From an uncultured Planctomycetia bacterium (lineage in GTDB: Bacteria > Omnitrophota > Gorgyraeia > 1-14-0-20-64-10), in assembly GCA_964373805.1 (NCBI GenBank), contig CAYJWF010000002.1:13861-77860 (forward strand): 64,000 nucleotides of DNA, read 5' to 3'. The notes below the pieces were generated by a model, which was given only the letters and a program-made list of their open reading frames with translations, ran no database searches and was not told the origin of the DNA. Both the position numbers and the translations under genes were made by a program. This document shows positions 10,561 through 46,421 of the stretch, one piece after another. How positions within the stretch are numbered: position 1 is the stretch's first letter; each line of letters starts with the position of its first letter.

Positions 10561-11670
10561 TTATGCCTCTCGATCCAAAACGGCGTAGCGGCGCTCTTGG
10601 AATGTTTGGTAAGTAACCGTTCCCACGTTGAGGAACCGCCCTTCTTCAAGCCCCGCGGCCCGAATGAGGGCCTCCAGGCCGGCTGCCCCAGCTACGGAAA
10701 GATCCTCTACGGCTTTACGGGAGGCACGGATGATGGCGTAAGGCTCCACCCCATTGAGCTTCCAGGCATTGACTTCCTCTAGGCCAACCATCTGGGCATT
10801 CAAGAGAATGACATCCCCGTTGGCTACAGCGAGTTTCGGCATATCCTCTTCTTGGGGCCTGGGGCTCTTCGACAGGGGAATCCGCTTGACCCCAAGTGGA
10901 AGCACCCCCTCCAGTCCTACCTGATCAAACAGAAACCGCCCCTCAAGCTCTCCGGCTTGTTCCACATCAACGTAGATCTTGTTCCCCCTGTGGAGGACTC
11001 CCCCGTTGCCCTCAATCGCCCGAACCAACTCCCCCTCCTCCAGGCCGGCCCTGAACGAAGTCGAAGAGCCGGTGGGGGAATGAAGCTTGGCCAATAATCG
11101 CTGGACCGTTTCGGACTTCAGGAGGTCGCCCAAAAGCGAGGGGATCTGACCGGGATTGTTGGTACTTCTCGAATCGATAAGTACATCCGAATATCCTAGA
11201 TTATCTGGATGAGATTGTCTCACCTGTTTTCTCTCCAACACAGAAACGTAGTACCGCTGCGGCTCATCATCCCAGCGGCGGGCTTGCCCTACAACAATCC
11301 GTATCCCCGCCGGGTTACCCTGTTCCGCCACCCTGGGATTCCAAATCCAAACGCCCCAATCTTCCCCTCGCCCACCTTGTTCACCCTTTACCGGTACCGC
11401 AGATACCCTGGATCGCAATCCTAGATAGTCACTCAGAGACCTGTTCACCACCGACTCGATTTGATTCCGGTCAGGAGAGCTCGCCACACGGCCACCGACG
11501 ATCCCCTCCTCCAAGCCGGCGCGGACCTCTTTTCGAACCTCTTGGGAAGCGGGACCTTGAATGCGTAGGGCAAAGGAAGGAGATGGCAGGGTGAGGCTTA
11601 AGATGAGGAGAAACGCAACGATTCGGGGAGTGGGGTTATCCATCGATTCGTCGGGTTGCCTGCTGACCAT
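10561..11670 (-). CDS. Hypothetical secreted protein (signal peptide), function unknown
   Basis: 369-aa ORF; N-terminal hydrophobic segment VAFLLILSLTLPSPSFA; good coding statistics; no confident domain call. Confidence 0.5.
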   Translation of the reverse strand: MVSRQPDESMDNPTPRIVAFLLILSLTLPSPSFALRIQGPASQEVRKEVRAGLEEGIVGGRVASSPDRNQIESVVNRSLSDYLGLRSRVSAVPVKGEQGGRGEDWGVWIWNPRVAEQGNPAGIRIVVGQARRWDDEPQRYYVSVLERKQVRQSHPDNLGYSDVLIDSRSTNNPGQIPSLLGDLLKSETVQRLLAKLHSPTGSSTSFRAGLEEGELVRAIEGNGGVLHRGNKIYVDVEQAGELEGRFLFDQVGLEGVLPLGVKRIPLSKSPRPQEEDMPKLAVANGDVILLNAQMVGLEEVNAWKLNGVEPYAIIRASRKAVEDLSVAGAAGLEALIRAAGLEEGRFLNVGTVTYQTFQERRYAVLDREA

Positions 11671-13778: not shown

Positions 13779-13875
13779 TTCTTGAGATCCCTCGTCCTCC
13801 TCGTTTCACTCGGAGTCCTCGGGATGTAATTCGGCCTGGCACTTACGTCGTTTCACTCCGTAAGTGCCGGCCTCA

Positions 13876-15483: not shown

Positions 15484-15503
15484 AAAAAGGCAGCCTCCTA
15501 TAA

Positions 15504-15561
15504 GTTTTTGGCTGCGCCAGCAAACAGTCCAGAAAAGTCCCGAGCGGAGCGAGGGGCCTCC
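15504..15561 (+). repeat. Family-1 ~58-bp repeat element, intergenic copy (glnA-glnK spacer)
   Basis: GTTTTTGGCTGCGCCAGCAAACAGTCCAGAAAAGTCCCGAGCGGAGCGAGGGGCCTCC. Confidence 0.75.
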
Positions 15562-15562
15562 C

Positions 15563-15901
15563 CTATAACGCCGCTTCGCTCATCTCCCCGGTGCGAATCC
15601 GGATGACCTCCTCCACGGTTGAGACGAAGATCTTCCCATCCCCCACCGAACCGGTCTTGGCGGCCTCTTGGATCGCGCGGACGATTTTGCTGACGTCCTT
15701 GTCGCTCACCACAATCTCCAGCTTAACTTTCGGCAACAGTTCCACCCGGTACTGCTCCCCTCGCCACTGCTGAACCACCCCTTTCTGCTTGCCGTGGCCT
15801 TCCACTTCGGAGATGTTGAGGCCCGGGAAGCCCACCTTTTCTAAGGCCCGACGAACTTCATCCACCTTCTCAGGACGAACGATGGCTTCGATCTTCTTCA
15901 T
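15563..15901 (-). CDS. glnK: Nitrogen regulatory protein P-II
   Basis: 112 aa [20 protein letters not shown]...GDGKIFV; overlaps amtB start by 4 nt (glnK-amtB pairing). Confidence 0.9.
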
Positions 15902-17268: not shown

Positions 17269-17283
17269 GCTTTAACCTCCTTA

Positions 17284-17342
17284 GAGAACGCTTCTCTCGG
17301 GGACACTTCCTTCTCAGAGAAGTGTCCTTTTAAGAAGCGTTC
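17284..17342 (-). promoter_or_regulatory. Nested inverted repeat (AGAACGCTTCT...GGACACTTC / GAAGTGTCC...AGAAGCGTTCT) between porin gene and amtB; terminator/attenuator candidate
   Basis: Two concentric perfect inverted repeats seen in sequence, directly upstream of the amtB RBS AAGGAGG. Confidence 0.35.
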
Positions 17343-17350
17343 TTGTTACC

Positions 17351-30363: not shown

Positions 30364-31163
30364 AGCGCGACGATGGACATCCCTTTCCGGTCGGCCTCAG
30401 CGACGAGTTGAGGAAGCTGAAACAAGAGTGTCCGCTTCGCCTCCACCCCTAACACAGACACCCGGGCTTCCTCCATGGCTTGGATTGTTTCTAAGCCGAC
30501 CACCGGGATATCGAACCGCATATCGTGCTCCGGGCCGCAGGCCTTGACCACCACACATCCTACACCGGCCACCTCGCCTGCCCTTCGGATAGAGGCATCG
30601 GTCCCCTCCATCCCCTCGACGGCGACCACCGCTTTGCGTCGAACCACGAGAGTCTGACCGATCCCCAGTCTGGAAAGTTGTCTAGCCAACGGGAGCCCAA
30701 AGGCAAGATCGGCCTGTTCTTCTTGGGTAGGAACTCTTTGGGTCAAGGGTCCCGGACCAGGGATCCAATCCTTCAAGAACGTCCCAGAATCCAACACCCG
30801 GAACCCCTGGGCCTCTAAGTAATGGACCGCCATCTTCATCGCTGAAGTCCCGGATCGGTCCGGCAACAGCTTAAGCAACTGCTGGACCACTGCCTCAAAT
30901 CGACCCTCCCCTTGAAGGAGTCGCTCCGGCTTGATCTGACCGGCGAGGATCACCTCCTGAACCCCTTCCTTCTTCAATAGATCAGGCACCTGCCCGATCT
31001 GGGAGAAAGTCAACCAATGCATCCGATCCACTTCTTGCTCCAAGGAAGAGGAGGTTTCTTCCTTGAAACCGATCGCGACGACCTCGTAGCCTTGGGCCTT
31101 GGCCGCCCTGGCCACGTAAATGGGAAAGGTTCGGTTTCCTGCGATAATCCCAAGTTTAGGCAT
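30360..31163 (-). CDS. lpxI: UDP-2,3-diacylglucosamine diphosphatase LpxI (DUF1009)
   Basis: 267 aa; N-terminal LGIIAGNRTFPIYVARAA and C-terminal VVAVEGMEGTDASIRRAG...VVVKACGPEHDMRFDIPVVG match the LpxI family; located in lipid A cluster. Confidence 0.65.
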   Translation of the reverse strand: MPKLGIIAGNRTFPIYVARAAKAQGYEVVAIGFKEETSSSLEQEVDRMHWLTFSQIGQVPDLLKKEGVQEVILAGQIKPERLLQGEGRFEAVVQQLLKLLPDRSGTSAMKMAVHYLEAQGFRVLDSGTFLKDWIPGPGPLTQRVPTQEEQADLAFGLPLARQLSRLGIGQTLVVRRKAVVAVEGMEGTDASIRRAGEVAGVGCVVVKACGPEHDMRFDIPVVGLETIQAMEEARVSVLGVEAKRTLLFQLPQLVAEADRKGMSIVAL

Positions 31164-31480: not shown

Positions 31481-32830
31481 CTAAAGCTTCCCGTCCCCTT
31501 CCAACAAGGCAAACATGAGATCCCCCTCCGCCACGACCTTCTCCTCCACCAGGGCCCGGGTCCGCATCTGGCCGGTTTTGGAGCGAAGCTTCAGCACCTC
31601 CGCCTCCAGGCGAAGGGTGTCCCCGGGTAAGACGGTCCGCCGAAACTTGACGTTATCCATCGCCACAAAATAGGCGTACTTGCCCAGATTCTCCGGCTTA
31701 TTCAACAAGAGGATGCCCGACACCTGGGCGAGGGCCTCGATGATCATCACCCCCGGCATCACCGGACGCTTGGGGAAATGACCGGCAAAGAACGGCTCGT
31801 TGATGGTCACGTTCTTCAACCCCACCGCCCGCTGATCGGGAACCAACTCGACGATCCGATCCACCAAAAGAAACGGATAGCGGTGGGGGAGAATCCGCTC
31901 AATGGCGAAGATGTCGAGGGCGGTCGCCTCCGGTTCGACGAACTGCGCCTGGATCCCCCCTTCCCTGCCGCGCTCCAACGTTTGCCGGAGCTTCTGAACG
32001 AGCCGTAGGTTCAACGCATGGCCGGAACGGATGGCGATCACATGCGCTTGAAGGGGCCGGCCCAGAAGGTACAGATCCCCAATGAGATCGAGGACCTTGT
32101 GTCGGACGAACTCATCTGGAAAACGCAAGCGGTTGTTGATCACCCGCCCCTCGGCATCGACCACCACGGTGTTCTCGTAATTGGCTCCCCGGCCCAACCC
32201 GATGCGACGCAGCGCCTCCACCTCCTGGGCAAGACAAAAGGTTCGGGAAGGGGCCAGCTCCGTTTCCAAGAATGGAGAGGTCAAGTTCGCCGAAAAAAAC
32301 TGGGCCTTTAAACCGGGGATGGGATAGCTCAACGTGTAGGAAACGCGAAAGGCTTCGTCGGGCAACACCGCTACGATGGCCGAGTCCTCCTCGATCCAAA
32401 CCGGCTCCCGCACCGGGATCACCTGACGCGGAGCCTCCTGTTCCTGGAAACCAGCCTGCCGAAGGAGCTCCACAAAGGGATAGGCCGATCCATCGAGTCC
32501 CGGGACCTCTTCACCATTTAACTCCACGAGAAGGTTATCCACCCCGGAAGCGTAACAGCCGGCCATGAGGTGTTCGATGGTATGAACCTCAACGGCCCCC
32601 TGGCCGATCGAGGTCCGCCGAGGCCGACGAGAGGCGTCGAGGATGTTGGTGATCGAGGCGGCCACAGGCTGGGAACCGGCCAAGTCGGTCCGAATAAAAG
32701 CGATCCCATTGTCGGACGGAGCTGGCTTAAACTCCACTTGGGAACGCCGCCCGGAATGAAGGCCCACCCCTTCTACCCGGGCCGGCCGACGGATGGTGCG
32801 CTGTCGACTAAGGGGGGCCTTGTCTTCCAA
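31481..32830 (-). CDS. lpxC-fabZ: Bifunctional UDP-3-O-acyl-GlcNAc deacetylase / 3-hydroxyacyl-ACP dehydratase (LpxC-FabZ fusion)
   Basis: N-terminal LpxC (TIRRPARVEGVGLHSGRRSQVEFKPA...HTIEHLMAG) and C-terminal FabZ hotdog (ILPHRYPFLLVDRIVEL...EPFFAGHFP..PVMPGVMIIEALAQ). Confidence 0.85.
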   Translation of the reverse strand: MEDKAPLSRQRTIRRPARVEGVGLHSGRRSQVEFKPAPSDNGIAFIRTDLAGSQPVAASITNILDASRRPRRTSIGQGAVEVHTIEHLMAGCYASGVDNLLVELNGEEVPGLDGSAYPFVELLRQAGFQEQEAPRQVIPVREPVWIEEDSAIVAVLPDEAFRVSYTLSYPIPGLKAQFFSANLTSPFLETELAPSRTFCLAQEVEALRRIGLGRGANYENTVVVDAEGRVINNRLRFPDEFVRHKVLDLIGDLYLLGRPLQAHVIAIRSGHALNLRLVQKLRQTLERGREGGIQAQFVEPEATALDIFAIERILPHRYPFLLVDRIVELVPDQRAVGLKNVTINEPFFAGHFPKRPVMPGVMIIEALAQVSGILLLNKPENLGKYAYFVAMDNVKFRRTVLPGDTLRLEAEVLKLRSKTGQMRTRALVEEKVVAEGDLMFALLEGDGKL

Positions 32831-34478: not shown

Positions 34479-36908
34479 TTAAAAGCCCCTGCTGGCCGAG
34501 AAGTGCAGCCGTCCGCTCTTTCGTTCCCCCTTATCCGGATTGATGGGCCAACCGTAATCCAGTTTCACCGGCCCAAACGGCGTTTTAATCCGAACGCCCC
34601 CACCCACCCCTGATTTGAAACCTTCCTGGGCAAACTCCCCCACGTTGTTCCAAACGTTCCCCACATCGAAAAAGGCCGCCCCTTTCAAAAACTCTACGAT
34701 GGGAACGGTGTACTCGGCATTGAAGACCGCTAGGGCCTCTCCCCCAATGGGATCGCTGGTCACGCCATCCTTAGGGCCGATCCGCCGTTCCCGATACCCA
34801 CGGACCGAATCGGCCCCCCCGGCGAAGAATCGCTCGAAGATCGGTACCGCCTTGGAATCTCCAAACTCGTTGGCGAGTCCTACGTTTAAGTGGAATTCCA
34901 ACACCTGATTCTCCCAAAGGGGCTCGAAAAAGACCGCCCCGGAACTGGTCCACTTCCAAAAATCTTTCTGTCCGCCGAGGAACGACCCGGCGGTCTCGAT
35001 GTCGTTGTCGAGGAGGTACCCCTGCTTGGGGTTAAAGACGCTGTCCCGCGTATCCCGCGTGTATCCCAATCGAATCGAAGCGACGGTGTTCCGTCCCACC
35101 TCATCCCGCAACGCCGAGGAGGCGGTATCCGAAACTTCGCTGACCGAAACCCGCTCCAGCCGATACATCGCGTCCACCCGATCGTAATCCCCGAAGGCGC
35201 GGCCCAACCGCAGGTCACCTCCTCGGCGAGTCAAGTCGAAGCTGAAACCCTCTCCACGGGTTCGGGTCGTGTTGAACAGATCAAACCCAAAGAGGTAAGG
35301 CCGGTCAAAGACCCAGGGCTCGGTGAAGGAAAGCTCGAAATCTCGACGACGGGTACCGGCCATCACCCGAAATTTAAGTTCCTGGCCACCTCCGACAAAC
35401 GTGGGCCAGTTGAACAGATCGAAGTTTCGCTGGGAAATCTCGGCGAAGCCGATCAGTTTGTCCAAGGAGCTGAAGCCCCCTCCAAAAGAGAACTCGCCGG
35501 TCTTCGACTCCTTGACCGTTACGACGAGGTTGCGCCGGTCCGGCCGATCGGAAGGGGCGGTCTCTAAGCTCACTTCTTCAAAAAACCCCAAGTTGTACAA
35601 CCGCTCTTTGGAGCGTCGAAGCTTCTCCCCATCGAAACGCTCTCCCGGAGCGATCCGAAGTTCCCGGCGAATCACCAGATCCCGCGTCTTGACGTTGCCC
35701 TGAATCAGGATCTGACCCACATAGGCCACCGATCCTTCCGCGATCTGGTAGGTCACGTCGACGCGGTGGGTCGCGGGGTTCAGGGCCGTCGCCGGTTCCA
35801 CCGATGCGGCCATGTATCCTCTGGCGAAATAGACCGATTGCAGGGAAGCCACCTCCTGGGCCAACCGCTCCTGACTAAAGGGCTCCCCCTCGATCAGTTT
35901 CAATCGGGATTTAAGCTCCTCCACAGGAATCTGTTCCGCTCCCTTTAAGAGCGTCTGGCCCACCAGGTAGCGAGGGCCTTCGGCGATCGTCACAGCGACC
36001 GTCAGCCAACGTCTCTTCTCATCAAAGGAGGTCTCGGCCCCCACCTGGACGTCGCTGTAGCCCTCCACCCGGTAAAGCTCCTTCAGGCGCTCCACATCCT
36101 CCTCCAAGACCTCAGAGCGATAGTAGCCAGAGGTCAGCCACCCTCCCTGTTTGGTGGCCATGGCCTTTCGGAGTCGCCGATCGGAGAGACGAACGTTCCC
36201 AACGAATTGGATCCGACGAACCCGTACCTTTCGCCCTTCGGTGATGGCGATAAAGACCGTGGCCTTGTTGGTCGCCTCATCCACCTTCACCTCCTGCGCC
36301 ACCTCGACCAGGTGAAACCCCTTCGTCCGATAAAGCTGGCGGATCCTTTCCAAGTCCTCCTTCAGTTCTCGACGATCCAACAGCTCCTGTTCCTTGGTCT
36401 TCAGCTCCTCCCGAAGCTTGGCCTCTCGGAAGTGCCGACTGCCGGTGATCACGACCCCACTCACCAAGGGCCGCTCCTTGACCCGGAACCGAACGAGAGA
36501 TCCCTCCCGATAGGGCCGGACCTCCGCTGAGACGTCGGTAAAGAACCCGGTGCCGTAGAGCCTTTTGATGTCCTCATCCACGGTGGGTTGATTCACCCGA
36601 TCCCCCGGGCGGGTCTTAATCTTGGCCAGAATCGTAGCGGATGATACGATCGAGTTCCCTTCCACCTCGACCGCCGTCACCTTGCCCTCGGCCGGTGGTT
36701 CAGGAGCCTGCTGAAGAGATGGCTCTGCCCTCTCCGCCTCCTGGGAAACCGGTTCCTCCCTTGGAGGCTCCTCATCGGCCCTCGCCCCCCCACCGGCGGC
36801 TAGAAGGGCCACCAACAGATAGACGGTTCGTTTCATGGAAAGAGGAAACAGCTTAGCACACCCGACGGTCAATGGCAACGGCGGGTTCCTAGGTGGGTGT
36901 ACAGCCAA
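34479..36908 (-). CDS. bamA: Outer membrane protein assembly factor BamA (Omp85); likely true start at internal MKRTVYLL (about 36836)
   Basis: Signal peptide, Pro/Glu-rich linker, five POTRA-like segments, C-terminal 16-strand barrel ending ...HFSASRGF. Confidence 0.85.
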   Translation of the reverse strand: MAVHPPRNPPLPLTVGCAKLFPLSMKRTVYLLVALLAAGGGARADEEPPREEPVSQEAERAEPSLQQAPEPPAEGKVTAVEVEGNSIVSSATILAKIKTRPGDRVNQPTVDEDIKRLYGTGFFTDVSAEVRPYREGSLVRFRVKERPLVSGVVITGSRHFREAKLREELKTKEQELLDRRELKEDLERIRQLYRTKGFHLVEVAQEVKVDEATNKATVFIAITEGRKVRVRRIQFVGNVRLSDRRLRKAMATKQGGWLTSGYYRSEVLEEDVERLKELYRVEGYSDVQVGAETSFDEKRRWLTVAVTIAEGPRYLVGQTLLKGAEQIPVEELKSRLKLIEGEPFSQERLAQEVASLQSVYFARGYMAASVEPATALNPATHRVDVTYQIAEGSVAYVGQILIQGNVKTRDLVIRRELRIAPGERFDGEKLRRSKERLYNLGFFEEVSLETAPSDRPDRRNLVVTVKESKTGEFSFGGGFSSLDKLIGFAEISQRNFDLFNWPTFVGGGQELKFRVMAGTRRRDFELSFTEPWVFDRPYLFGFDLFNTTRTRGEGFSFDLTRRGGDLRLGRAFGDYDRVDAMYRLERVSVSEVSDTASSALRDEVGRNTVASIRLGYTRDTRDSVFNPKQGYLLDNDIETAGSFLGGQKDFWKWTSSGAVFFEPLWENQVLEFHLNVGLANEFGDSKAVPIFERFFAGGADSVRGYRERRIGPKDGVTSDPIGGEALAVFNAEYTVPIVEFLKGAAFFDVGNVWNNVGEFAQEGFKSGVGGGVRIKTPFGPVKLDYGWPINPDKGERKSGRLHFSASRGF

Positions 36909-36920: not shown

Positions 36921-39900
36921 TTACACGCTAACCTTGGCCAATTCCTTCAGGTGGTCGGCGAGTTTGTTGAGACGGATGCCGTAGAAGGACTCGACCTCAG
37001 ACTGTGAGAGGCCCTCTTCCAATCCGGCCAGATTGCCGAGGATTCGCTTGAGCACAAAAGGGAGGTCGCCCATTGGAAGATGGGTAACCGTAATCGGAAC
37101 TCCGCGCGATTGGAGGAGTCGATTCAGAGCCTCAGCCCCATCCTCGGTGTCCAAATATCCCATCCGTCCAGCACCGAGGAGAGCCAGCGAACCGGCAGCT
37201 TCTTCCAGCCCCCCTGCTGCCAAAAGGACGCTGGGGTGATCCGCGTACGAAGGTGCCTCCGGGCCAATGACAACGAGGAACGGACCCAGCGCCGGCACCT
37301 GAGCCTTCAGGCGATCCAGGAATCCGATGAGTTCTGGCCCATCGGTTTTTAGCCCACTTGGCCCAATCCCGATCAAGGGCTGGGTTTTAAGTTCCGTCGC
37401 CAGGACCCGAGCGATCCGGACCATATCCTCCTCCAATCCAGCACTTGGTTTCCACTCATCGGGAGAAAAGGTCTGAATGCCGTCTTTGACCTTGACCAGT
37501 ACGGTGTCAGACTCTGGGTCATAGTGAATGGTCGTGGGTTCATTGAGCGCTTTACTCGGCAACTCCGCGGGAGGCTCGGTCGCCATATCATAGACGCGGA
37601 GCTTCTCCCGGTCATCGGTCACAAACAGGAGCTTTCGATCAGAAACATAGGCCATATCGCCAGTAAACCTGTATTCTCCAAAAGGCTCCCCAATCTGCTC
37701 TCCCGTCGTCGCATCAAAGCGGAGTAAGCGACAAATCGAAAGCTGACCAGGAAGATCAGGACCGACGGGGACAAGAAGGGTGTTATCATCCGCATCATAG
37801 ACAACCACGCTAGGGTTCAATGTGGAAATCGTTGGAGCTATCTCCTGTCCGGTTTCTGGGTCAAAGGTCCGTATCTGACTAACGAAGGCCACGAAGAGCC
37901 TCCGGTTTCGTAAATCCTGAGCGACGTCATTCACAGCCTCCAGAGAACGTACCGGAATGTTCTTGATCAGTTCTCCGGTCTCTCCTTGAAATAGCCGAAT
38001 CTCCCGCGTATTCTTAAATATTCCGGAAACTCCCTCCACCAGGATATCCGTATCCGGATCGTAATCTGCCTTGCGTAGCGTCACAACCTGCCGAACGGTC
38101 TCGGAAGGTTCCATTCTCTTTGGCTTGAACCATGGAGCAGCTTCTCCATTGGTCAGCTTCTCCAAAGCCTCCAATTGCGTCCTCACTTGGCTCAAAATCG
38201 GCTCCTCCAGATGCTGACTCGGTTCAACTCCCAGACCGATCAGCCGACCGGTCAGCTCCGCTAGTTTGGTGTCGTCCGACCCCAACCAGTCGGCCGGATT
38301 ACCACCGTAGAGGCTCATGGCATGCACCGCCCGCTGCGGCTTGGAACCCCTATCGACAAATTCCCGACGACCCCACCGAATCAGGGCTGCTTTAGAGATC
38401 GGTGGCCTTCCAGAATAAGGAGAAAGCGACAGAGAAGAGGCGTTACTGATTCTCTCCATAGCCTCCTTGAAAGCAGGGCCCGCGTGCCTTAAGGCTCCAT
38501 GGACATGTGGCCAATCAAAGTGATGTGCCAAAAGAATTAAGTTCTCTACCGCCAAGATATCCCGGCGCAACAGCCTGGGAGTCGACCGGAGCCACTGGGT
38601 AGTCTCGTTAAGTTTCTGATCGGCATACTCCACATTCGTAGGACCGTATCGAGGTCTTTCCAAGATTACACGCAGTTCATCCGACAGCTCTTCCAGGCCG
38701 GTCTTAGGCTCCGTTGGTGGATCGGGTGGGACTTGGCCTCTGAGTTGCGCGATCTCTTCATCCACGAGGCGCTCCACATCCGCTGGAGCTGCGCCTGGCT
38801 GTACCCCACGCTGCACCAAAGCCTCCACGTACCGGTCTATGGGGCGAAGCTGGGCGTTGGTATCCAGCTCTTCCATGCGGACCATCTCCACATTGGAAAA
38901 ACGCCCTTTAAGCAACCGCTCCGTCTGAAAGGCATGCATTCGGCCTCGGGGGACGACCATGACTGTACTTTCAGGTTCAGGATCTTCTTCCAGATACATC
39001 AAGGCCTTCAAGGCTGAGATCAGTTCCAGGCCGATCTGAACATCGTCCCTCTGGTAAGCGCTGGCTAGTTTTTCCTGTGCAGCATGAAGCAGATCGGCCT
39101 TCACCTGGGATTCAGCGGAAGGGTCCTTCACCTGTTGGAGAGCCAGATTCTCCCGCTCACGGGCCAAGAGAAATCTCCACCAGGATTCAAAGGAGGGTTC
39201 CTCCCGTAACGGGACGACGTTGATCCCTCTCTTCTGCTTCTCCACCAGAATCTCGAACAACCGGCGGTTCCAATCGGATGGAATAGGCGGATTAAACGAT
39301 GTCGACCCGGCCCGGATCTGGCTCACCCAGCCATCCATGAACTCGTTGACTCCTTCCATCGCCTGATGAAACGCCGGACGAACGATTTGGTCCACTCCCT
39401 GGGGATCCCTCCTAGCCGCCGCGATCAGATCTCCTGGTTGAAGGCCGGCGATCTGAAGCAACTCTGTCAGGAACGGTCCACCCACTTCCAACGGGACGAC
39501 CAGATGTTTGACGCCTGGTCGGGCACTCAAGAAACCATCCAACCGCTTTTTGAACTCCTCCAGCACCTTCATGGACAAGGGATCATCTCCATGCAGCAGG
39601 AAGCCGGCCAGAACCGGAATCTGAGAGATCCTTGTGGTACCAAGACCCGTTTGGGCAATCAACCACACTGGCCTAAGCTGTGGGAAACTCTGAACAAGCT
39701 GCCGAAAAAGTCCAGCCTCTAAAGTAGTGGGATCTTCGTGACGGTGGTGAGCTACCTCCCCTGCAACCAAATCGACCAAACGGGATAGGCTAAGAGGCGA
39801 ATCGGCAGAAATGTAAAAGTTAACCCGATTATCTTCAGGATCACCCGGCTTGGTGTACCTTACGACAGACAGCGCGTTCTTTCCATGCGAATCGCGATGG

Positions 39901-42900
39901 GTGACGACAGAACCTCTCGGATCGGTCACGGGAATAGGGTCTTGGAGGATGGCCCTAAATCTGTAAGACTCCCCATACCCTGTATTTGGATCCTCCGTAG
40001 ATAGATACTGTGAGCTGAGCCAATTTCGGAGAACAATCTCAATATCTTTAGGAGTCAAACCAGCCCAGTCATCTCCCAAAGTGGCAGGAGCTCCCCTGGT
40101 TTCCTCCTCCGGTGGGATCGGTTTCTCTAGCTCAGCCTTAATCTTGGCCAGCGCTTCCTCGGTTGGGAGTATATCGGCTGGGATCCCCAGACCGATCAGC
40201 CGACCGGTCAGCTCCGCCAGTTTCGTGTCATCCGACCCCAACCAGTCGGCCGGCTTGCCGCCGTAGAGGCGCATCGCCTGCACCGCCCGCTGGGGCTTGG
40301 TCCCTTTTCCAAACTCTTGACGACCAGAACGGATGAGCTCCGTCGAAGTGGGTTCCTCCTCCAGACCGGAGGCGGGGCCGGCGCTTAACCAGGTCAGGAG
40401 ACGGTCCATGCGGGGATCGCTGTAAAGATCCCCTGGCATGGCGATGGGATTGCTGTTGGAATCAAGCCGTTGCCATGCCAGAGCTCTCTGGAAGGTACTC
40501 CGCAATCGGTCGTCCGGCTGACTCAAGAAGGCATCCACCACCTCCAGGAACTGGGCCCAGCTCTGGCTCGTGGCCAACCGGTAGAGGTGATCCTTGAGCT
40601 GCTCGGTGGACAACCGTTGGGGAAGGTCAGGAAAGGAACCGGTGAGAACCAGCCCCTTTTGCGTGTCGGTTGGAGCGGGAAGGTGCCGCCCCAGGGCGGC
40701 TGCCTGAATGGTTTTAGCTTGGGAGTCGGTCTCTCTGGAAAAGGCCTCTAAGAGAGCAGGCACCAGTTGAGGCGATAAGGAGAGGTCCGAGCCTAAGCCC
40801 AGCTTGGCCGCCTCTCTCCGAGCAGCCACGTCTGGATCCGTTATCTTGGCGATGAGGGTCCTGAGGGCTGCTTCCGGAGAAGGGTTTACCTGGATATCGA
40901 GTTTGGCATCTTGAAGGGCCTTCCGGATCGTCTCGGGTTCCCCTTCCTTCAGGGGAACGTAGGTTCGCAGGATCAAATCGATCAGAGGAACGGATTGATC
41001 GGGCCTAAGGCTTAAATTCCCGACAGCCGCCTCAGTCAGGCGCATGTCGGGCGGCTCATACAGCTCCCCCTGTCGGAATAAGGGACGCAACACGTTGGCG
41101 GCCTTGACCACACTCCGGATGGCTTCCTCAGGAATCGTGGGATGGTCCTCGCGGAGGATCGCCACCTCATCGTTCTCCTCCGGATAACCGTAGCGATGGA
41201 TCGCCCAGCGATCTACAAATTCAGCGGAAAGCTCGTATACCTCATACGGCGGCCGAGGGGGATTCATGTTCAGACCCACGACCGCCCCCTCCGGTAAAAC
41301 AAACTCCTCGCCGTTGTCCATGAGGACTCTGCGCTCAGCCAGGAAGTCATTGAAGGCGGCCAACGTTCCTGGCAGGGCTTTGTTCCCTTCGTCCCAAACA
41401 ACGATGGGCGGACCTTCTCTCGCCACTCTGTCCGGCCTGAGGTAGGCCAGTGGTAAGGAATCTCTCCAGAGGGTCTTTCCCTTCTCGTACCATCGGATCA
41501 CCAGCATGTCCCGGACCTTAAAGTCCTTGCTCATTCCGAGGACGATGAGGTTCCGTTTTAAGGTCCTGGCCAAAATCTCCATAAAATAGTTCTTACCGGT
41601 TCCGGCATCTCCAATGTTCAGGAGGTGTTCTCCTAACGCCACCGACTTGAGTAGATCTTCCAGTTTCCTGAGGTTCCCGGCACTCTTCCGGAACAGCTTG
41701 GTGGGAATTAACCCTCCGGTTCCAGTGGCCAGGGAAATCCGGACATCCGCCGGCCAGTGAGGATACCGGATGAAACTCGAGGAATCGGTCTGAGGGTCCG
41801 ATGGAACCACGATCGGCTCCACAGCAAGAGACCTGGCGGCTGGCCAAGGCTGACCCGCAGGCCAGTGGGTCGGTTTAAAGACCCGCTCCAGGAGGTCCTG
41901 GACGTGTTGTTCCATCCCATCCCCATGGACCGTATCGTCCACCCAGTAGCTTTTGAAGAAGATATCCGGTATTCGGGCCAGATCCTCCGGAAAGGTATCG
42001 AGATGCCGAACCATCCGGACTAAGGCTCGGGTGGTCACCACAAAAGGAGATTCTGCCTGCCGGGCATCTGCCCGAAGCAACCGGGCCGCCTCCAGGAGGC
42101 CATCGATGATTCCATCGGAGACCACCCAATCTCCATCGGTGGTCTTGCGCCTCCTCTGCTGGCGAAGGATCTGCCGCTCGTGTTCTTGAAAGAGCGCAAA
42201 TTCCAGGTTGTCCTTCCCATCGGCCAGTTTCTCCGATGGATAATCCAGTCGGAGCTTGCCGAAACGGGTGAGAAACTCACCCGGAAGTTGCCTCCCCTTA
42301 TACTGCATGAGGGAAACAATATCCCCTTCCGGCGGGTTGATCGCTGCGACGAATCGGCTGTTGGGATGGAACCTGGCCACCCGGTCATGGAGAACTTTGA
42401 CTCGGCTTTGCAAGGGATCGTTCAGTTCCGCCAGAACGGAGCCTGGTGCCCGGTTGACTTCCGATAGAATCACTAAATCCCCCAATTCCCCTCCTTCCAC
42501 GATATCCGAGGTGGACCATTCCATTTCCTCTCCTCGATGGGAGAGGCGCTCGGTGACGTTGGGCTTACGCATGTTCTCGTTGAAGGTCACCACCCGAACC
42601 CGGGTTTGGTGAACGTAATTCAGCAGTTGGGAGCGGACCGTTGCCAACGTGGAATCGGTCATCTGGGTCGCCTTCCCTTGCAGCCACCCCCGATAGATCT
42701 CCCAGATGTATCGGGCGTAGAGGCTCTTGCCGATCCCGGCCTGCCCGATCAACAGGAGGTTGTTCCGAGTCGGATGCCGCAGGACATCCCACATCTGTTT
42801 CAGCTTCAGCACCGTCCAGTCAGAGAGTTCTATCTTCAGAGTATTCGGCGGATCGATCCGGATCCCATCGATCTCAAACCAAGCCTGGTCCCCTTGCCTG

Positions 42901-45900
42901 TGAAACAAAAGCTCCCCAGCGCCCGGCAAGCCCTCAAACGGGGAAAGCCGCGGGAAGGCCAACGGCAGACGCTCGGACGCTACCTCCTCCAAGCCAGCCT
43001 CTGGTCCAGCCTGGGGACTGGGGCCGCTGGGCTTCCAGGGGCGGACTGGGCGGCGCATCTCCTGGTTCATGGTGAAGATCCCTTTGCGGACCAGTTGGTG
43101 CATCTGGGGAATATGGATCCCGTAAGGGCCGTAGGTCTGTTTCACCGCGGCCATGGCAGGACCCAGGCCCCAGCCGAAAATCCGGATGTCCGGGTTTTTC
43201 TCCATCAACTGGGCCATGGCGGAAGCTCCACCTGCCCCGGAAAGCCCATCGGAGATCACCCAGAGGATCTTCTCGGTCTCGGTATCGGCCCCTTCTCGAA
43301 GGCGAGCCATCTCCTCGGCGACAGCACCGACATCGTCCGTTCCGCCGTGGGTTAGGTTCAGCGCCTGGTCGACTACGAATGCGGCCTTCTGCTCGTCCCA
43401 CTTCTCATCGAATCTCTTGACCACAATGGAGGCGTTAGGTGTCCAATTCGAAAAGAGGGTGATCTCAAACTGTTGCCCTGGAACTGGGGCAACCGCCTCG
43501 GCCAAGGTGACCAGGAGATCCAGGGCATGGTCGATCTTTCGCTCCTCCTTCTCGACGGCCTCCTTCTTTTTCCTGAGTAACTCTTCCAAATCCAGTCCTT
43601 GGCTCTTCCAATTCTCCCAATCCACCGGATTCTGCATGCTGCCGCTGACATCCAGCAGGAAGGAACGGCGCTGCTTGACCTTTCCTGGGTCCAGGACATC
43701 CTGGAAGATAAAAGGCCAACCGGTAGAGGCCAGCGGCAGCTCTTCCTCATCCAGGTCGTCCCCTTCCCGGAGGCCACCGACGTATTCGGTCGTCTCTCTC
43801 ATCTGTACCGATTGGAAAAGATGGGCCCTAGCGACAGAGATGAGTGAGAGTCTCTTGGCTACGTATCTGCGGTACCGATCCCGCTGATCGGTCAACGCCT
43901 CCTTGCGGACCTTCCGCTGCTCCTGTTGGCGTTGAACAGCTTGCCTTTCTCGTCCCCTTCGCTCCTGTGGAGAAACCTCGAACTCCCGCTGGAGCTTCGC
44001 CATGTCGCCCAGCTCCACGGGGGATAATGGGACCTCGGCCGGTTTCGGGGCTGCTGGGGGGAGTACCTTGAGAAGCTCCTCGCCGATTAACTCCGGCAAG
44101 GTCTCTCCAAGGCCGCCGGGTGAAAAATCGGGTGGCGTCGGAGCTGTTGGGATAGGAATCCCCGATTCCTGGGCTTGGGATCGGGCCTGCTGACCAGCCT
44201 GACGAATTCCTTCTGAAATGGATGCCGCCTGCTCACCCAATGATTGACTTTGCTGAGAGAGCTTCTGGGCCGTATCCGCCATCGGCGTTCCAGAGGATTC
44301 TTGAGCCAGTTGATTGAAACGGCTCTGAATCACGATCACCTGCGCCTGGATCCGGCCAGCCTGCTGACCAGCCTCATCCATTCCCTCGATGATGAGGATG
44401 ACCTGAAGCGGGACACCTGGATCTCCTTGAGCCATCCCTTTGAGGTTCTTAAGCCTTTCGGCCAGTTGGGCCAGCATCTGAAGAAGCTCGTGGAGTGCGC
44501 CGGAAATCGATTTCGCATCCTGACCGGCCTGTTTGGCCTCTGCTGCAAGCTCCGGTTTTCCTTGGGCCTGCGCTTGGGGCCACACCCCTTGCGCCAGTTC
44601 CTGTAAAATCCGACGGAGGGTCAGAGCCATGGCCTCGGCCTGTTGCCTCTGTTTCTTTAATTCCGGATTGGCCCATTCGGCGATCGAGCGGGCTGCCTCA
44701 AAGATTCGCTCCTGAGGAGATTTCCTGCTGGAGATATTTTTCGATTCTCGCGCCACCGCGCCCGCGGTGGACTCCGCCCCTTGAGCCAAGTCCTGGATCT
44801 GGCCCGCCTGTTGGGCTACAGAGGCAGCCTGTTCCTGAACGGAACGGGCCAGATCCCGCAAGGTGGAAACATCCGGCTTGGGCTGATTTCCTTCCTTAGC
44901 CAACGCCTGCGCCTGATCCGGAAGCCTCTCTGCCTTCTCGGTAAGCTCCTTGGCTTGGGCCTCGATCTGCTCAAACTGACCCGGCAGACGATGGGCCAGA
45001 TCTCGAAGCTTCTGGACAGGACCCGGAGCCAACTGGCTTAACCGTTCGGCATACTCGGGAACCTGTTTAGCTTGAGCCGCAGATTCTTGGGCTTGGGTGC
45101 AAAGATCCCCAACCTCCTTTTGGAGGATCTGCGACATCTGGGTAAGATTTTCCAATTGCTTAGAAGGGATCGGCGCGGCGCCGGCTGCATGACGGACCTC
45201 CTGGGCCCCTGAGCCCAATCCACCGGCTGATTGCTCAGCGGTTTTCGCCTCCCCAACGATCTCTTGAGCGGCCCGGGAAAGGTCCCGGGCCAGTTGACCA
45301 ACCTTCTCGGCCCGGCGCTGAAGATCCTCATGTAATTTCCCCATGGCTTCCGGGGAAGCCGAGCCGGGGCGACCCGATAAGAGACCCTGCGGGATTACCC
45401 CAGCCAAAGGAAATTTCGGCGCCATTTGCCGGACGGTTTCCTCCAACCGCTGGTCTCTCATGCGGGGATCGAACTGAAGCAGCCGTTCGGCAACTGGCCA
45501 GAGGTCGTCTCGGACCATCCGATACAAGGAGCTGAACTCTATCCCAACGGATTTCTGACGCGTCAGCCGGGTTTGATCCAACGCCTCACGGACTTCGGGG
45601 GAAACGATCCTCTCATCCTTGACCTGTTCTCCCGGCTTGGCCACCGTCTGCCTGCGGCCTTCGTAGAGGATCCCTTCCAAGAACTGGAGGAAGAGAGGCA
45701 GTTGTCCCATCGCACCTTGGGCGGCCTCAAGTTTCTGGCTGTAAAGCGCCGTATCCAGATTCACGAAGTCAGCCTGCATGCCGGGAAGCCGGGCCGTCAC
45801 CCGAGCGCGGGCCCAGGGAATTCCCGTAGCACGCAAAAGAGCCAGAAACGCTCCGTTGGTGGCCAGAGGAGGGTCTACCACGGAAAAATCCAGGTGGATC

Positions 45901-46265
45901 GCTGCCGCTACCGCCTCCATCAGGAAGGCAAGGAGAACCTGATCAGGCTGATCGCTGTACCGCTTGAAATCCTCTGGCGCATACTGGAGGATGTGGAGGC
46001 TTGGGATGTACCGCCACTGGGGCCAGTCCCCTTCCCAGAGCGCCTCCCAGGTCCGAAGCTGAAGCTTGTAGTCGCCGGTAAATGTACGGGCTAATCGAGT
46101 TAGGCGATCCAGAAATTGCGGATCGATCTCTCGGAGGGCCTCCTCAAGCCCCGACTCGACCGTCGCAGAACCCACTCCCTGTGTCCGGAGAGCCCACGCA
46201 GGATGCGGCAGACTGAGGATGACTGCAAGCAAAAGCGCTACAGACGTGCGCCAGAATCTTGGCAT
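36921..46265 (-). CDS. Giant (3114 aa) multidomain protein: N-terminal signal/anchor, ~500-aa Gln/Ala-rich helical region, VWA (MIDAS) domain, two MoxR/midasin-like AAA_5 ATPase modules, duplicated ~55-aa module, beta-propeller-like repeats, C-terminal domain
   Basis: MIDAS LLDVSGSMQNP...THGGTD...VISDG; Walker A LLLIGQAGIGKS and second P-loop NIGDAGTGKN; Walker B VVWDEGNKALPGTLAAFNDFL; repeated SLYGG-PADWLGSDDTKLAELTGRLIGLG; single uninterrupted ORF ending 12 nt before bamA. Confidence 0.8.
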   Translation of the reverse strand: MPRFWRTSVALLLAVILSLPHPAWALRTQGVGSATVESGLEEALREIDPQFLDRLTRLARTFTGDYKLQLRTWEALWEGDWPQWRYIPSLHILQYAPEDFKRYSDQPDQVLLAFLMEAVAAAIHLDFSVVDPPLATNGAFLALLRATGIPWARARVTARLPGMQADFVNLDTALYSQKLEAAQGAMGQLPLFLQFLEGILYEGRRQTVAKPGEQVKDERIVSPEVREALDQTRLTRQKSVGIEFSSLYRMVRDDLWPVAERLLQFDPRMRDQRLEETVRQMAPKFPLAGVIPQGLLSGRPGSASPEAMGKLHEDLQRRAEKVGQLARDLSRAAQEIVGEAKTAEQSAGGLGSGAQEVRHAAGAAPIPSKQLENLTQMSQILQKEVGDLCTQAQESAAQAKQVPEYAERLSQLAPGPVQKLRDLAHRLPGQFEQIEAQAKELTEKAERLPDQAQALAKEGNQPKPDVSTLRDLARSVQEQAASVAQQAGQIQDLAQGAESTAGAVARESKNISSRKSPQERIFEAARSIAEWANPELKKQRQQAEAMALTLRRILQELAQGVWPQAQAQGKPELAAEAKQAGQDAKSISGALHELLQMLAQLAERLKNLKGMAQGDPGVPLQVILIIEGMDEAGQQAGRIQAQVIVIQSRFNQLAQESSGTPMADTAQKLSQQSQSLGEQAASISEGIRQAGQQARSQAQESGIPIPTAPTPPDFSPGGLGETLPELIGEELLKVLPPAAPKPAEVPLSPVELGDMAKLQREFEVSPQERRGRERQAVQRQQEQRKVRKEALTDQRDRYRRYVAKRLSLISVARAHLFQSVQMRETTEYVGGLREGDDLDEEELPLASTGWPFIFQDVLDPGKVKQRRSFLLDVSGSMQNPVDWENWKSQGLDLEELLRKKKEAVEKEERKIDHALDLLVTLAEAVAPVPGQQFEITLFSNWTPNASIVVKRFDEKWDEQKAAFVVDQALNLTHGGTDDVGAVAEEMARLREGADTETEKILWVISDGLSGAGGASAMAQLMEKNPDIRIFGWGLGPAMAAVKQTYGPYGIHIPQMHQLVRKGIFTMNQEMRRPVRPWKPSGPSPQAGPEAGLEEVASERLPLAFPRLSPFEGLPGAGELLFHRQGDQAWFEIDGIRIDPPNTLKIELSDWTVLKLKQMWDVLRHPTRNNLLLIGQAGIGKSLYARYIWEIYRGWLQGKATQMTDSTLATVRSQLLNYVHQTRVRVVTFNENMRKPNVTERLSHRGEEMEWSTSDIVEGGELGDLVILSEVNRAPGSVLAELNDPLQSRVKVLHDRVARFHPNSRFVAAINPPEGDIVSLMQYKGRQLPGEFLTRFGKLRLDYPSEKLADGKDNLEFALFQEHERQILRQQRRRKTTDGDWVVSDGIIDGLLEAARLLRADARQAESPFVVTTRALVRMVRHLDTFPEDLARIPDIFFKSYWVDDTVHGDGMEQHVQDLLERVFKPTHWPAGQPWPAARSLAVEPIVVPSDPQTDSSSFIRYPHWPADVRISLATGTGGLIPTKLFRKSAGNLRKLEDLLKSVALGEHLLNIGDAGTGKNYFMEILARTLKRNLIVLGMSKDFKVRDMLVIRWYEKGKTLWRDSLPLAYLRPDRVAREGPPIVVWDEGNKALPGTLAAFNDFLAERRVLMDNGEEFVLPEGAVVGLNMNPPRPPYEVYELSAEFVDRWAIHRYGYPEENDEVAILREDHPTIPEEAIRSVVKAANVLRPLFRQGELYEPPDMRLTEAAVGNLSLRPDQSVPLIDLILRTYVPLKEGEPETIRKALQDAKLDIQVNPSPEAALRTLIAKITDPDVAARREAAKLGLGSDLSLSPQLVPALLEAFSRETDSQAKTIQAAALGRHLPAPTDTQKGLVLTGSFPDLPQRLSTEQLKDHLYRLATSQSWAQFLEVVDAFLSQPDDRLRSTFQRALAWQRLDSNSNPIAMPGDLYSDPRMDRLLTWLSAGPASGLEEEPTSTELIRSGRQEFGKGTKPQRAVQAMRLYGGKPADWLGSDDTKLAELTGRLIGLGIPADILPTEEALAKIKAELEKPIPPEEETRGAPATLGDDWAGLTPKDIEIVLRNWLSSQYLSTEDPNTGYGESYRFRAILQDPIPVTDPRGSVVTHRDSHGKNALSVVRYTKPGDPEDNRVNFYISADSPLSLSRLVDLVAGEVAHHRHEDPTTLEAGLFRQLVQSFPQLRPVWLIAQTGLGTTRISQIPVLAGFLLHGDDPLSMKVLEEFKKRLDGFLSARPGVKHLVVPLEVGGPFLTELLQIAGLQPGDLIAAARRDPQGVDQIVRPAFHQAMEGVNEFMDGWVSQIRAGSTSFNPPIPSDWNRRLFEILVEKQKRGINVVPLREEPSFESWWRFLLARERENLALQQVKDPSAESQVKADLLHAAQEKLASAYQRDDVQIGLELISALKALMYLEEDPEPESTVMVVPRGRMHAFQTERLLKGRFSNVEMVRMEELDTNAQLRPIDRYVEALVQRGVQPGAAPADVERLVDEEIAQLRGQVPPDPPTEPKTGLEELSDELRVILERPRYGPTNVEYADQKLNETTQWLRSTPRLLRRDILAVENLILLAHHFDWPHVHGALRHAGPAFKEAMERISNASSLSLSPYSGRPPISKAALIRWGRREFVDRGSKPQRAVHAMSLYGGNPADWLGSDDTKLAELTGRLIGLGVEPSQHLEEPILSQVRTQLEALEKLTNGEAAPWFKPKRMEPSETVRQVVTLRKADYDPDTDILVEGVSGIFKNTREIRLFQGETGELIKNIPVRSLEAVNDVAQDLRNRRLFVAFVSQIRTFDPETGQEIAPTISTLNPSVVVYDADDNTLLVPVGPDLPGQLSICRLLRFDATTGEQIGEPFGEYRFTGDMAYVSDRKLLFVTDDREKLRVYDMATEPPAELPSKALNEPTTIHYDPESDTVLVKVKDGIQTFSPDEWKPSAGLEEDMVRIARVLATELKTQPLIGIGPSGLKTDGPELIGFLDRLKAQVPALGPFLVVIGPEAPSYADHPSVLLAAGGLEEAAGSLALLGAGRMGYLDTEDGAEALNRLLQSRGVPITVTHLPMGDLPFVLKRILGNLAGLEEGLSQSEVESFYGIRLNKLADHLKELAKVSV
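38230..38344. repeat. Intragenic 115-bp direct repeat, copy 1 (inside giant gene)
   Basis: ~90% identical to 40186..40300. Confidence 0.7.
40186..40300. repeat. Intragenic 115-bp direct repeat, copy 2 (inside giant gene)
   Basis: ~90% identical to 38230..38344; both encode the PKPQRAV-A-LYGG-PADWLGSDDTKLAELTGRLIGLG module. Confidence 0.7.
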
Positions 46266-46421
46266 CTATGGGTTTGCCTTTTCGGGGAACTCTCTATCGC
46301 TTCTTCCAACTATAATATATTCTAACTACACTTTCCAAGTATAGCCGATAGGGCCCATAGAAATCAAGAGGAATTTACGGGGTGAAAAATATCAAGGCAA
46401 GGTGCCAGGTCGACCCGACCC

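Follow-up and report, generated by a model that had tools for sequence, protein, structure and literature searches.

AAA+/VWA pairs are widespread remodelling devices, and their bacterial clients are mostly obscure. In the MoxR/CbbQ/NorQ systems (RavA-ViaA, CbbQ-CbbO, NorQ-NorD and CoxD-CoxE), an AAA_5 ATPase works with a VWA domain whose MIDAS is intact, the 2 partners being separate proteins of about 300-500 aa. CobS of the cobaltochelatase is an AAA_5-type ATPase as well, and its partner CobT is built from an N-domain, a charged/helical linker, and a C-terminal VWA domain; BchI/BchD are the Mg-chelatase counterparts. Midasin and the chelatase D subunits are AAA+/VWA fusions; midasin (Rea1/MDN1), a nuclear protein of eukaryotes, is a giant single chain in which 6 dynein-related AAA modules form a ring and are followed by a long linker with a D/E-rich region and a C-terminal MIDAS. 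The mechanistic paradigm for MoxR and vWA components is that the MIDAS grips an acidic peptide while the AAA+ component remodels the client (PMC7159879).

Within the 64,000-nucleotide stretch of DNA analysed here (the window), a single minus-strand gene unites these elements in one chain, at exactly the coordinates and length given by the initial annotation. The gene and its parts, from N- to C-terminus, are the following.

36921..46265, minus strand: giant VWA-AAA ORF, 3114 aa, ATG start
46188..46265, minus strand: Sec-type signal peptide, aa 1-26, predicted cleavage AWA/LR (slash, cleavage site)
45423..46133, minus strand: zincin-like N-terminal domain, aa 45-281, MEAVA in place of the HExxH of active relatives
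43956..45368, minus strand: Q/A/E-rich helical (coiled-coil-like) stalk by composition, aa 300-770
43041..43688, minus strand: VWA domain with complete MIDAS (D872, S874, S876, T976, D1006), aa 860-1075
42327..42761, minus strand: AAA_5 module 1, aa 1169-1313, Walker A GQAGIGKS, Walker B ILSEVNR (Ser for Asp)
41208..41624, minus strand: AAA_5 module 2, aa 1548-1686, Walker A GDAGTGKN, Walker B VVWDEGNKA
40371..40898, minus strand: helical, HEAT-like region, aa 1790-1965, common to the giant and P0001 only
40116..40346, minus strand: duplicated ~75-aa module, copy 1, aa 1974-2050
38721..39623, minus strand: TIKI/erythromycin-esterase/ChaN-fold domain, aa 2215-2515, invariant H2226, E2260, E2355, and H2444
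38166..38393, minus strand: duplicated ~75-aa module, copy 2, aa 2625-2700
37446..38123, minus strand: region unique to the giant, aa 2715-2940, initially annotated as a beta-propeller
36924..37427, minus strand: C-terminal domain, aa 2947-3114, initially annotated as alpha/beta

This is a real single gene and no assembly chimera. Its N-terminus is fixed because an in-frame TAG lies directly 5' of the ATG. Logan contig L010 (ERR4904392) reproduces aa 1-2026 with 0 mismatches in 6,078 nt, and contigs from 3 sequencing runs (L019, L020, and L021) carry the last 445 aa together with bamA-skp, again with 0 mismatches. Independent assemblies cover aa 1-2026, aa 2670-3114, and the bamA junction, aa 2027-2669 excepted, and in them several genes joined by assembly error were not seen. 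Four relatives in all are collinear with the giant, including P0001 (4056 aa) and P0002 and P0006 (~2400 aa), with conservation peaking in the AAA region, at 58% identity to P0001 versus 36% in the N-terminal third.

The giant belongs to a 5-member clade in a broader family of bacterial giants that seems not to have been described. Neither the domain libraries nor the literature searched holds a description of this family, and NCBIfam and PADLOC searches with the whole giant returned coiled-coil noise and nothing more. Matches are rare: a word-indexed search through 5.8 billion protein clusters yielded 2, 185,579 species genomes yielded one locus, and metagenomes yielded 5 loci. The fusion of AAA+ and VWA is less unusual in itself than initially proposed, and that claim was overstated, since an exhaustive search turned up this core in dozens of further giant proteins of bacteria. 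In about 45 of the recovered proteins the VWA is preceded by the N-terminal domain seen here, and the arrangement zincin-like domain, coil, VWA, AAA_5, AAA_5 is met repeatedly among giants 3000-5600 aa long.

The proposal that a VWA/MIDAS domain and 2 AAA_5 modules are fused in this one giant gene is borne out. Both AAA_5 modules lie well above the Pfam cut-off for PF07728 (47.2 and 43.2 bits against 22, with 79.7 bits for the whole protein), and the nearest solved relatives of this region in the PDB are midasin, NorQ, and CbbQ. The Walker A of module 1 is invariant in the clade, and the GKN variant seen in module 2 is common across the wider family. Walker B reads VVWDE in module 2 and ILSE, with Ser-Glu and not Asp-Glu, in module 1 of the whole clade; module 2 itself is destroyed in P0002 and P0006 (GDTDTGQS, WDRGEKG). 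The VWA assignment, by contrast, holds at the family level and not for the giant taken singly: the 5 MIDAS residues are invariant in the giant, P0001, and P0002, a 14-member VWA profile reaches solved VWA domains at 1e-9 (integrin I domains, CobT, the midasin MIDAS (6qta), and BatB), and VWA_2 is matched at E<=0.01 by 12 of the 14 aligned members, whereas the giant alone scores 17-19 bits against Pfam VWA and VWA_2, under their cut-offs of 23.8 and 27, and its single-sequence VWA had no match in the PDB.

In coupling AAA_5 to a VWA with an intact MIDAS, the giant is like the MoxR-VWA pairs, but it does so in one 3114-aa chain, with 2 non-identical AAA modules, one of them with the Ser-Glu Walker B, and with a signal peptide and zincin-like, TIKI-fold, and adaptor modules added. 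Its best PDB sequence match is midasin (6or5, E 2e-5 over 64 residues), and it shares with midasin the great length of a single chain. It departs from the midasin architecture, however, having 2 AAA modules rather than 6, a VWA that is N-terminal to the AAA modules, and, as a bacterial protein, a signal peptide.

The N-terminal hydrophobic segment noted initially is a predicted Sec-type signal, kept in all 5 clade giants (LSLPHPAWA/LR). Its h-region is only 11-13 residues long and is followed by a Pro and a small-x-small cleavage site, with positive charges on the N-terminal side and a net acidic stretch afterwards. The zincin-like domain behind it had escaped the initial annotation. Several relatives carry HE(V/I/S)(W/F)H at the aligned position, in the manner of the minigluzincin/M48 zincins (selecase, Ste24, HtpX, and BepA), whereas the giant has MEAVA, which by its sequence should be unable to bind zinc in the usual way, and we read the domain as catalytically dead. 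The stalk matches Rad50, SMC/JetC, and talin weakly, and the composition of aa 301-770 (A 15%, Q 13%, L 10%, and E 10%) agrees with the Gln/Ala/Glu-rich helical stretch first described.

This N-terminal half parallels CobT in layout, and the wider family touches CobT at the level of sequence: Pfam CobT is matched by 3 of 23 N-terminal domains (5.8e-5) and CobT_C by 3 of 14 VWA domains. The giant itself, on the other hand, matches neither the CobT N-terminal model (PF06213) nor CobT_C (PF11775). A profile of the N-terminal domain gave no sequence match to solved structures, solved CobT included, and a Foldseek search of the domain against the PDB gave nothing significant and no match to the CobT N-domain. 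There are no cob genes or CobN near the giant or in the rest of the scanned window, and the HExxH peptidase-type motifs of its relatives are not known to be a CobT feature.

In the C-terminal half, the duplicated module initially sized at ~55 aa is indeed present twice, at about 75 aa, and has 6 copies in P0001. The TIKI-fold domain is an addition to the initial annotation. A predicted structure model gives it an alpha/beta fold with a parallel sheet core, in which H2226, E2260, E2355, and H2444 would each stand directly after one of 4 successive strands, and we regard it as a probable hydrolase. It is without a sequence-level match in Pfam, NCBIfam, or the PDB, and what sets it apart within the TIKI/erythromycin esterase/ChaN/TraB/RRSP superfamily is that it sits within an AAA+/VWA protein. 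The WD/YVTN beta-propeller could not be upheld: Pfam matches to such blades reach only E 0.08-0.13, below cut-offs, BLAST finds no internal repeats, and the [YF]D motifs of the region are irregularly spaced.

A short motif, A-G-[LMVA]-E-E, runs through the whole chain. It is found in 7 copies against 0.10 expected, a count that none of 5,000 shuffles reached, and neither it nor a second gene of the window that carries it had been noted initially.

46140..46154, minus strand: motif copy 1, SGLEE, aa 38-42, 13 residues past the predicted cleavage site
42984..42998, minus strand: motif copy 2, AGLEE, aa 1090-1094, at the VWA-to-AAA junction, in 5 of 5 clade members
40356..40370, minus strand: motif copy 3, SGLEE, aa 1966-1970
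38688..38702, minus strand: motif copy 4, TGLEE, aa 2522-2526, at a helix start in a low-confidence Pro-rich linker
37428..37442, minus strand: motif copy 5, AGLEE, aa 2942-2946
within 36924..37427, minus strand: motif copies 6 (aa 3018-3022) and 7 (aa 3080-3084), in the C-terminal domain
10561..11670, minus strand: 369-aa secreted protein, leader PSFA/LRIQG and 3 AGLEE copies

Four of the motif positions are conserved across orthologues, and the spacing from signal cleavage to motif is constant at 13 residues in all 5 giants. The copies are placed at module borders, often behind Pro-rich linkers; in P0001 a ~400-aa module inserted between VWA and AAA has the motif on both flanks, and in P0002 and P0006 the motif lies on both sides of the TIKI-fold domain, which is clade-specific, as the motif is. 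Other clades of the wider family carry RSE[LMIV]R as their junction motif instead. The copies in the giant do not share one Leu codon (CTT, TTG, and CTG are all used), so the motif is selected at the protein level, and we rejected an artefact of repeats or linkers in the DNA. In the DNA that flanks the relatives, the motif occurs inside the giants only, bar one opposite-strand frame within P0006. The last 2 copies of the giant (6 and 7), like those in the C-terminal domain of the 369-aa protein, lie inside apparently folded regions, where they could be a mere helix-capping habit. Literature searches on the motifs gave nothing relevant among the matches listed, which were author names or abbreviations. 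The 369-aa protein shares the P-x-x-A/L-R pattern with the 5 giants and has no cytoplasmic-type domains; its leader and motif make it a candidate partner or substrate of the giant. The C-terminal domains of the 2 proteins are not homologous by hhalign (probability 0.5%), where the motif alone aligns.

Our preferred reading, to which we give a probability of roughly 45%, is that the giant is a Sec-exported modular protein of ~340 kDa acting like a MoxR-VWA remodelling machine. Its core resembles, on the domain assignments above, a CobT-like half (zincin-like domain, coil, and VWA) joined to a CobS/MoxR-like half (the 2 AAA_5 modules). In such a machine, the MIDAS metal site would hold a client peptide by an acidic residue, the AAA_5 pair, presumably oligomerised into a ring, would change conformation on nucleotide binding, and this change would be passed through the helical and charged linkers so that the client is remodelled or released. 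To this the clade would add the TIKI-fold hydrolase domain, the repeated ~75-aa adaptors, and the border motif. Recognition within the system would, we infer, depend on the motif, which could be either the acidic ligand of the MIDAS or the site at which the TIKI-fold domain cuts. If the motif has that role, then the 369-aa protein, sharing both leader and motif with the giant, would count as a client or a partner.

Several observations weigh against this reading. With a cleavable signal, the nucleotide-binding modules would end up in the periplasm, a compartment expected to lack ATP. The Ser-Glu Walker B and the destroyed module 2 of P0002 and P0006 suggest that ATP hydrolysis may be unneeded, which weakens the view of the giant as a motor. 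In addition, the order of VWA before AAA is the reverse of that in midasin and BchD, and the client is putative.

On the other hand, the giant might be a self-processing secreted polyprotein, possibly toxin-like, in which A-G-[LMVA]-E-E is, after export, the cleavage site of the TIKI-fold domain or of a trans-acting protease. In this scenario, a 13-residue N-terminal propeptide would be removed, the 369-aa protein would be processed likewise, and the modules set free would be the zincin-like/coil/VWA unit, the AAA pair, the adaptors, the hydrolase, and the C-terminal domains; the AAA modules might then act only where ATP exists, for example inside a target cell. The placement of the motif at module borders and behind Pro-rich linkers, its constant distance from the signal cleavage site, the motif-flanked insert of P0001, and the restriction of both the motif and the 4-residue His/Glu domain to this clade all fit such a scheme, and site-specific endopeptidases are known within the TIKI family. 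Tiki itself is a Wnt-specific metalloprotease, and RRSP, a MARTX effector, cuts an acidic loop of Ras with a 2His/2Glu site and a conserved Arg for substrate recognition (PMC6254334). The MARTX toxins are likewise secreted modular proteins with a short conserved inter-module sequence and a TIKI-fold module, but they have a C-terminal secretion signal where the giant has a Sec signal, and RTX repeats, a cysteine protease domain, a translocation domain, and secretion-system genes (type I included) were not detected in or near the giant. Cleavage is moreover a prediction from the sequence, some motif copies lie within folded domains, and the RSE[LMIV]R motif of the other clades does not track a TIKI/TraB-like domain; a tie between that motif and the TraB/ChaN-like domain was rejected for lack of correlation. 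We consider the polyprotein scenario unlikely on balance.

A bolder version is that the motif is a module-border tag read by the giant's own TIKI-fold endopeptidase, which would release the VWA on its coiled-coil stalk, the AAA+ pair, and the adaptors and trim the 13-residue propeptide, that the same tag sits on other secreted proteins such as the 369-aa protein, and that related clades use RSE[LMIV]R or a membrane segment in its place. If this were true, the giant envelope proteins of the family would share a general code for marking the borders of their modules. We hold this to be speculative and rather doubtful.

Alternatively, the signal may be left uncleaved, or may fail to export the 3000-residue body, so that the VWA and AAA modules would act on the cytoplasmic side of the inner membrane as a membrane-tethered ATPase, like the classical MoxR-VWA pairs. 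Such a location would suit the strong conservation of Walker A and of the whole AAA region. It would also suit the hydrophobic segments at the VWA-to-AAA junction of many members of the wider family, which could be a membrane hairpin; one member with such a junction, P0023, is without an N-terminal signal. The short h-region, the Pro, the small-x-small site, and the charge pattern of the giant are those of a cleavable Sec signal, however, and not of an anchor, and the same leader is found on the 369-aa protein with its lack of cytoplasmic-type domains. A tethered cytoplasmic ATPase seems improbable to us.

The initial annotation had instead proposed an envelope chaperone that works with the BAM machinery and shares a transcript with bamA-skp-lpxD. 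The features on which this idea bears are the following.

34479..36836, minus strand: bamA, 5 POTRA + Omp85, the downstream neighbour, context and not part of the giant's system
46309..46367, minus strand: sigma-70-like promoter matches, consensus matches only, in a 156-nt AT-rich gap after dnaB

The giant and bamA are on the same strand with no terminator-like site between them, so read-through is possible, and the export signal would suit an envelope role. The reported distance of 12 nt holds for the longest bamA ORF only (TTG 36908); gene callers choose TTG 36878, and the BamA signal peptide, MKRTVYLLVALLAAGGGARA, begins at ATG 36836, 84 nt past the stop of the giant and probably the true start. 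The genes within ~5 kb of the giant are dnaB, rplI, ssb, bamA, skp, lpxD, and lpxC-fabZ, and 2 other loci also lie near envelope or housekeeping genes: the L005 copy is downstream of pyrG-kdsA, and P0006 follows pyrH-frr-serS and an M50B-like peptidase gene, with another giant ORF next. P0001, though, has an AbiEii gene on one side and a cytochrome c/cox operon on the other, and the next gene after a P0002-like copy is a solute-binding-protein/permease fusion. The bamA gene thus adjoins the giant in 1 of 5 loci and in 0 of the 4 others inspected, on which ground we rejected the synteny, and the functional link is unsupported. The giant also has its own AT-rich, promoter-like upstream region, and members of the family are much too scarce to serve as a general accessory factor of BAM. 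Because the adjacency is not conserved, the giant should not be annotated as such a factor. A chaperone or remodelling machine remains a fair analogy, but nothing ties the giant to outer-membrane biogenesis, and we think a role in BAM function very unlikely.

A vWA-MoxR conflict or anti-phage system of the type catalogued by Kaur et al. 2020 is the least probable of the readings, and extremely so: the giant does have a MoxR-vWA core with inactive peptidase-like and beta-rich accessory domains, P0001 adjoins the AbiEii toxin gene, and such systems are reported in planctomycetes (PMC7159879), but PADLOC gave no match beyond coiled-coil noise, the neighbourhood shows no VMAP, iSTAND, or FtsH third component, the signal peptide is conserved, and the gene sits in housekeeping neighbourhoods.

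Whichever reading is preferred, this family hard-wires an AAA+/VWA pair to peptidase-like and hydrolase modules, and in the present clade the export signal on the whole chain raises the question of what role a nucleotide-binding AAA+ protein would have outside the cytoplasm. The inter-module motif is short and highly specific. If it is a cleavage or docking code, it would offer a handle on the assembly, processing, and recognition of these giants, and their partner proteins would become identifiable from sequence alone.

The 3114-aa giant is encoded by one open reading frame (36921..46265, minus strand) without interruption, and a TAG directly 5' of its ATG fixes the N-terminus. Run ERR4904392, assembled independently by Logan (contig L010), carries dnaB followed by giant codons 1-2026 with 0/6078 mismatches, and contigs from three runs (L019-L021) carry the final 445 codons, then bamA and skp, again with 0 mismatches; independent assemblies thus cover the giant except aa 2027-2669. 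It is collinear with its relatives over its full length and matches the surrounding window in base composition. The giant is not an assembly chimera, and the coordinates and length first given for it are confirmed.

Features of the giant (encoded on the minus strand) and of a second secreted protein
Giant aa 1-26: Sec signal peptide, with two Arg, a hydrophobic core of 11-13 residues, Pro and AWA|LR
Giant aa 45-281: N-terminal domain, read as zincin-like and inactive
Giant aa 300-770: stalk, rich in A, Q, L and E
Giant aa 860-1075: VWA domain with a complete, invariant MIDAS
Giant aa 1790-1965: helical HEAT-like region, common to the 4056-aa relative P0001 only
Giant aa 2215-2515: TIKI-fold domain, assigned from predicted structure and invariant His/Glu
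Window 10561-11670, minus strand: 369-aa secreted protein, representing the other small family with the AGLEE motif

The signal-peptide pattern is present in every member of the giant's clade, in agreement with the hydrophobic N-terminal signal of the initial annotation, whose Gln/Ala/Glu-rich helical stretch corresponds to the stalk; library searches with the latter return only coiled-coil noise of the SMC, Rad50 and talin type. The N-terminal domain has no match in the domain libraries searched, and AlphaFold models it at pLDDT 88 with a 23-sequence alignment. The alignment is the stronger argument for a zincin-like reading: on the aligned helix several relatives carry HE(V/I/S)(W/F)H, with EDPRVN about 40 residues later, and because the giant has MEAVA and ATGIPWAR at these positions, its own domain would be inactive. 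The VWA domain does have the intact MIDAS proposed for it, but alone it scores under the Pfam cut-offs. A 14-member family profile does find solved VWA structures, with PTMP1 best (1e-9) and collagen VI, TRAP, integrin I domains, BatB, CobT and midasin MIDAS among the further matches.

Both proposed AAA_5 modules exceed threshold in the HMM search, and no other part of the protein is as well conserved as the AAA region. Module 1 has the Walker A GQAGIGKS and a Ser-Glu Walker B, and module 2 has GDAGTGKN and WDE; both motifs of module 2 are gone in the close relatives P0002 and P0006, and in the wider family a Ser/Thr-Glu Walker B is regularly found in one of the two modules. The signs on AAA function are opposed, with the highest conservation on one side and incomplete canonical catalytic residues across the clade on the other.

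Toward the C-terminus, the duplicated module described as ~55 aa is indeed present, in units of ~75 aa (2 copies in the giant, 6 in P0001). The TIKI-fold model has a pLDDT of 76 (core ~85), and H2226, E2260, E2355 and H2444, invariant in the clade, each lie directly after one of four successive strands. By its position in the model this set would match the 2His/2Glu signature known from RRSP. A beta-propeller of WD/YVTN-like blades had been proposed at aa 2715-2940, and we found no support for it; this region is unique to the giant, and a C-terminal domain follows it.

The close clade is very rare. A word-indexed search of 5.8 billion protein clusters gave two relatives, 185,579 species genomes contained one giant locus (in a MAG labelled "uncultured Planctomycetia"), and metagenomes contained five giant-type loci. 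At locus L017, a second ORF (11622-17993, plus strand) lies directly 3' of P0006; it has a hydrophobic N-terminus, exceeds 2124 aa and runs past the locus end, and its available part contains no AGxEE motif. The 840 matches (E<=1e-3) of an exhaustive profile search include many generic AAA_5 proteins; ~45 of the proteins recovered have a giant-type N-terminal domain upstream of a VWA. A common order, zincin-like, coil, VWA, AAA_5, AAA_5, is seen in giants of 3000-5600 aa; the AAA modules come first in P0011, P0020 and P0039, as in midasin. Family proteins of ~1250 aa have the CobT-like half only, and Pfam CobT and CobT_C match a few members. AAA_5 modules alternate with WD40 propellers in P0008 (2600 aa, four nearly identical units), P0020 and P0039. 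In P0021, P0027, P0013 and P0040 the VWA strand with the last MIDAS Asp (..LTDGNP..) follows the GIGIG segment, an order that suggests the VWA has been circularly permuted or rearranged.

The initial annotation had overlooked a short motif, A-G-[LMVA]-E-E. GLEE occurs 7 times in the giant; [AGST]G[LMVI]EE averages 0.10 in shuffled versions, and 0 of 5000 shuffles reach 7. The Leu codons differ among copies, which rules out a DNA repeat. In every clade member the motif occurs 13 residues past the predicted site of signal cleavage, where the VWA and AAA regions join, and at additional module borders; it lies on either side of a ~400-aa insert between VWA and AAA in P0001 and brackets the TIKI-fold domain in P0002 and P0006. 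The copy at giant aa 2522 is modelled in a low-confidence Pro-rich linker, at a helix start. Across 155 family proteins (362,164 residues), only the giant's clade and one other small family carry the motif. The VWA-to-AAA junction in other clades has either RSE[LMIV]R, recurring also at module borders (P0012, P0013, P0017, P0040, P0112), or hydrophobic membrane-like segments (P0014-16, P0021, P0023, P0027, P0034). The 369-aa protein has a leader near-identical to the giant's (..PSFA|LRIQG..), three AGLEE copies and no Pfam match; homology of its C-terminal domain to the giant's was rejected on comparison of the two domains. P0003 is identical to it in sequence (NCBI and Logan), and the metagenomic homologues P0004 and P0005 resemble it only over a ~150-aa C-terminal domain.

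Between dnaB and the giant lie 156 AT-rich nt with promoter-like matches, and bamA follows the giant on the same strand. No terminator-like site was found between the giant and bamA, so read-through is possible. The reported 12-nt gap rests on an upstream TTG: of the candidate bamA starts (TTG 36908, TTG 36878, ATG 36836), a signal peptide directly follows only ATG 36836, 84 nt past the giant's stop. The bamA-skp-lpxD cluster includes a fused LpxC-FabZ ORF (31481-32830, minus strand, 449 aa), with an LpxI gene (30360-31163) downstream. Elsewhere in the window lie two adjoining glutamine synthetase genes (445 and 535 aa), then an ammonium transporter and a BBP2-type porin (12390-18607, minus strand), and two large proteins of the secreted type that carry dockerin type I domains (18823-21378 and 23046-26651, minus strand), one with FG-GAP repeats and the other an S8 subtilase of 1201 aa.

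MoxR-VWA systems that have been characterised (PMC7159879) offer a model: the giant may work as a general machine of that type (probability roughly 0.45). Its MIDAS would capture an acidic peptide, and AAA modules of several chains would probably form a ring that passes a nucleotide-dependent change along the helical linker. The chief problem is the cleavable-looking leader, which would place the AAA modules outside the cytoplasm; they may bind nucleotide without turnover or act in another compartment, or the body may not be exported. A self-processing polyprotein, for which the TIKI-fold domain could supply the cutting activity, is an unlikely alternative, and a tethered ATPase that stays in the cytoplasm, at odds with that leader, is somewhat less probable still. 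A BAM-coupled chaperone is improbable, since a synteny check found bamA beside the giant in none of the four other loci, and a conflict system has least in its favour of all. The initial annotation was largely right in its observations, save the propeller and the gap, and right in spirit in its interpretation, save the tie to bamA.

Machines combining AAA+ and VWA are already known. In the domain libraries and literature searched, neither the architecture of the giant's family nor its export signal, its border motif or the TIKI-fold and dead zincin-like domains embedded in it has been described. The AGLEE motif, which could be a ligand of the MIDAS or the site at which the TIKI-fold domain cuts, is the best lead on how the giant works.
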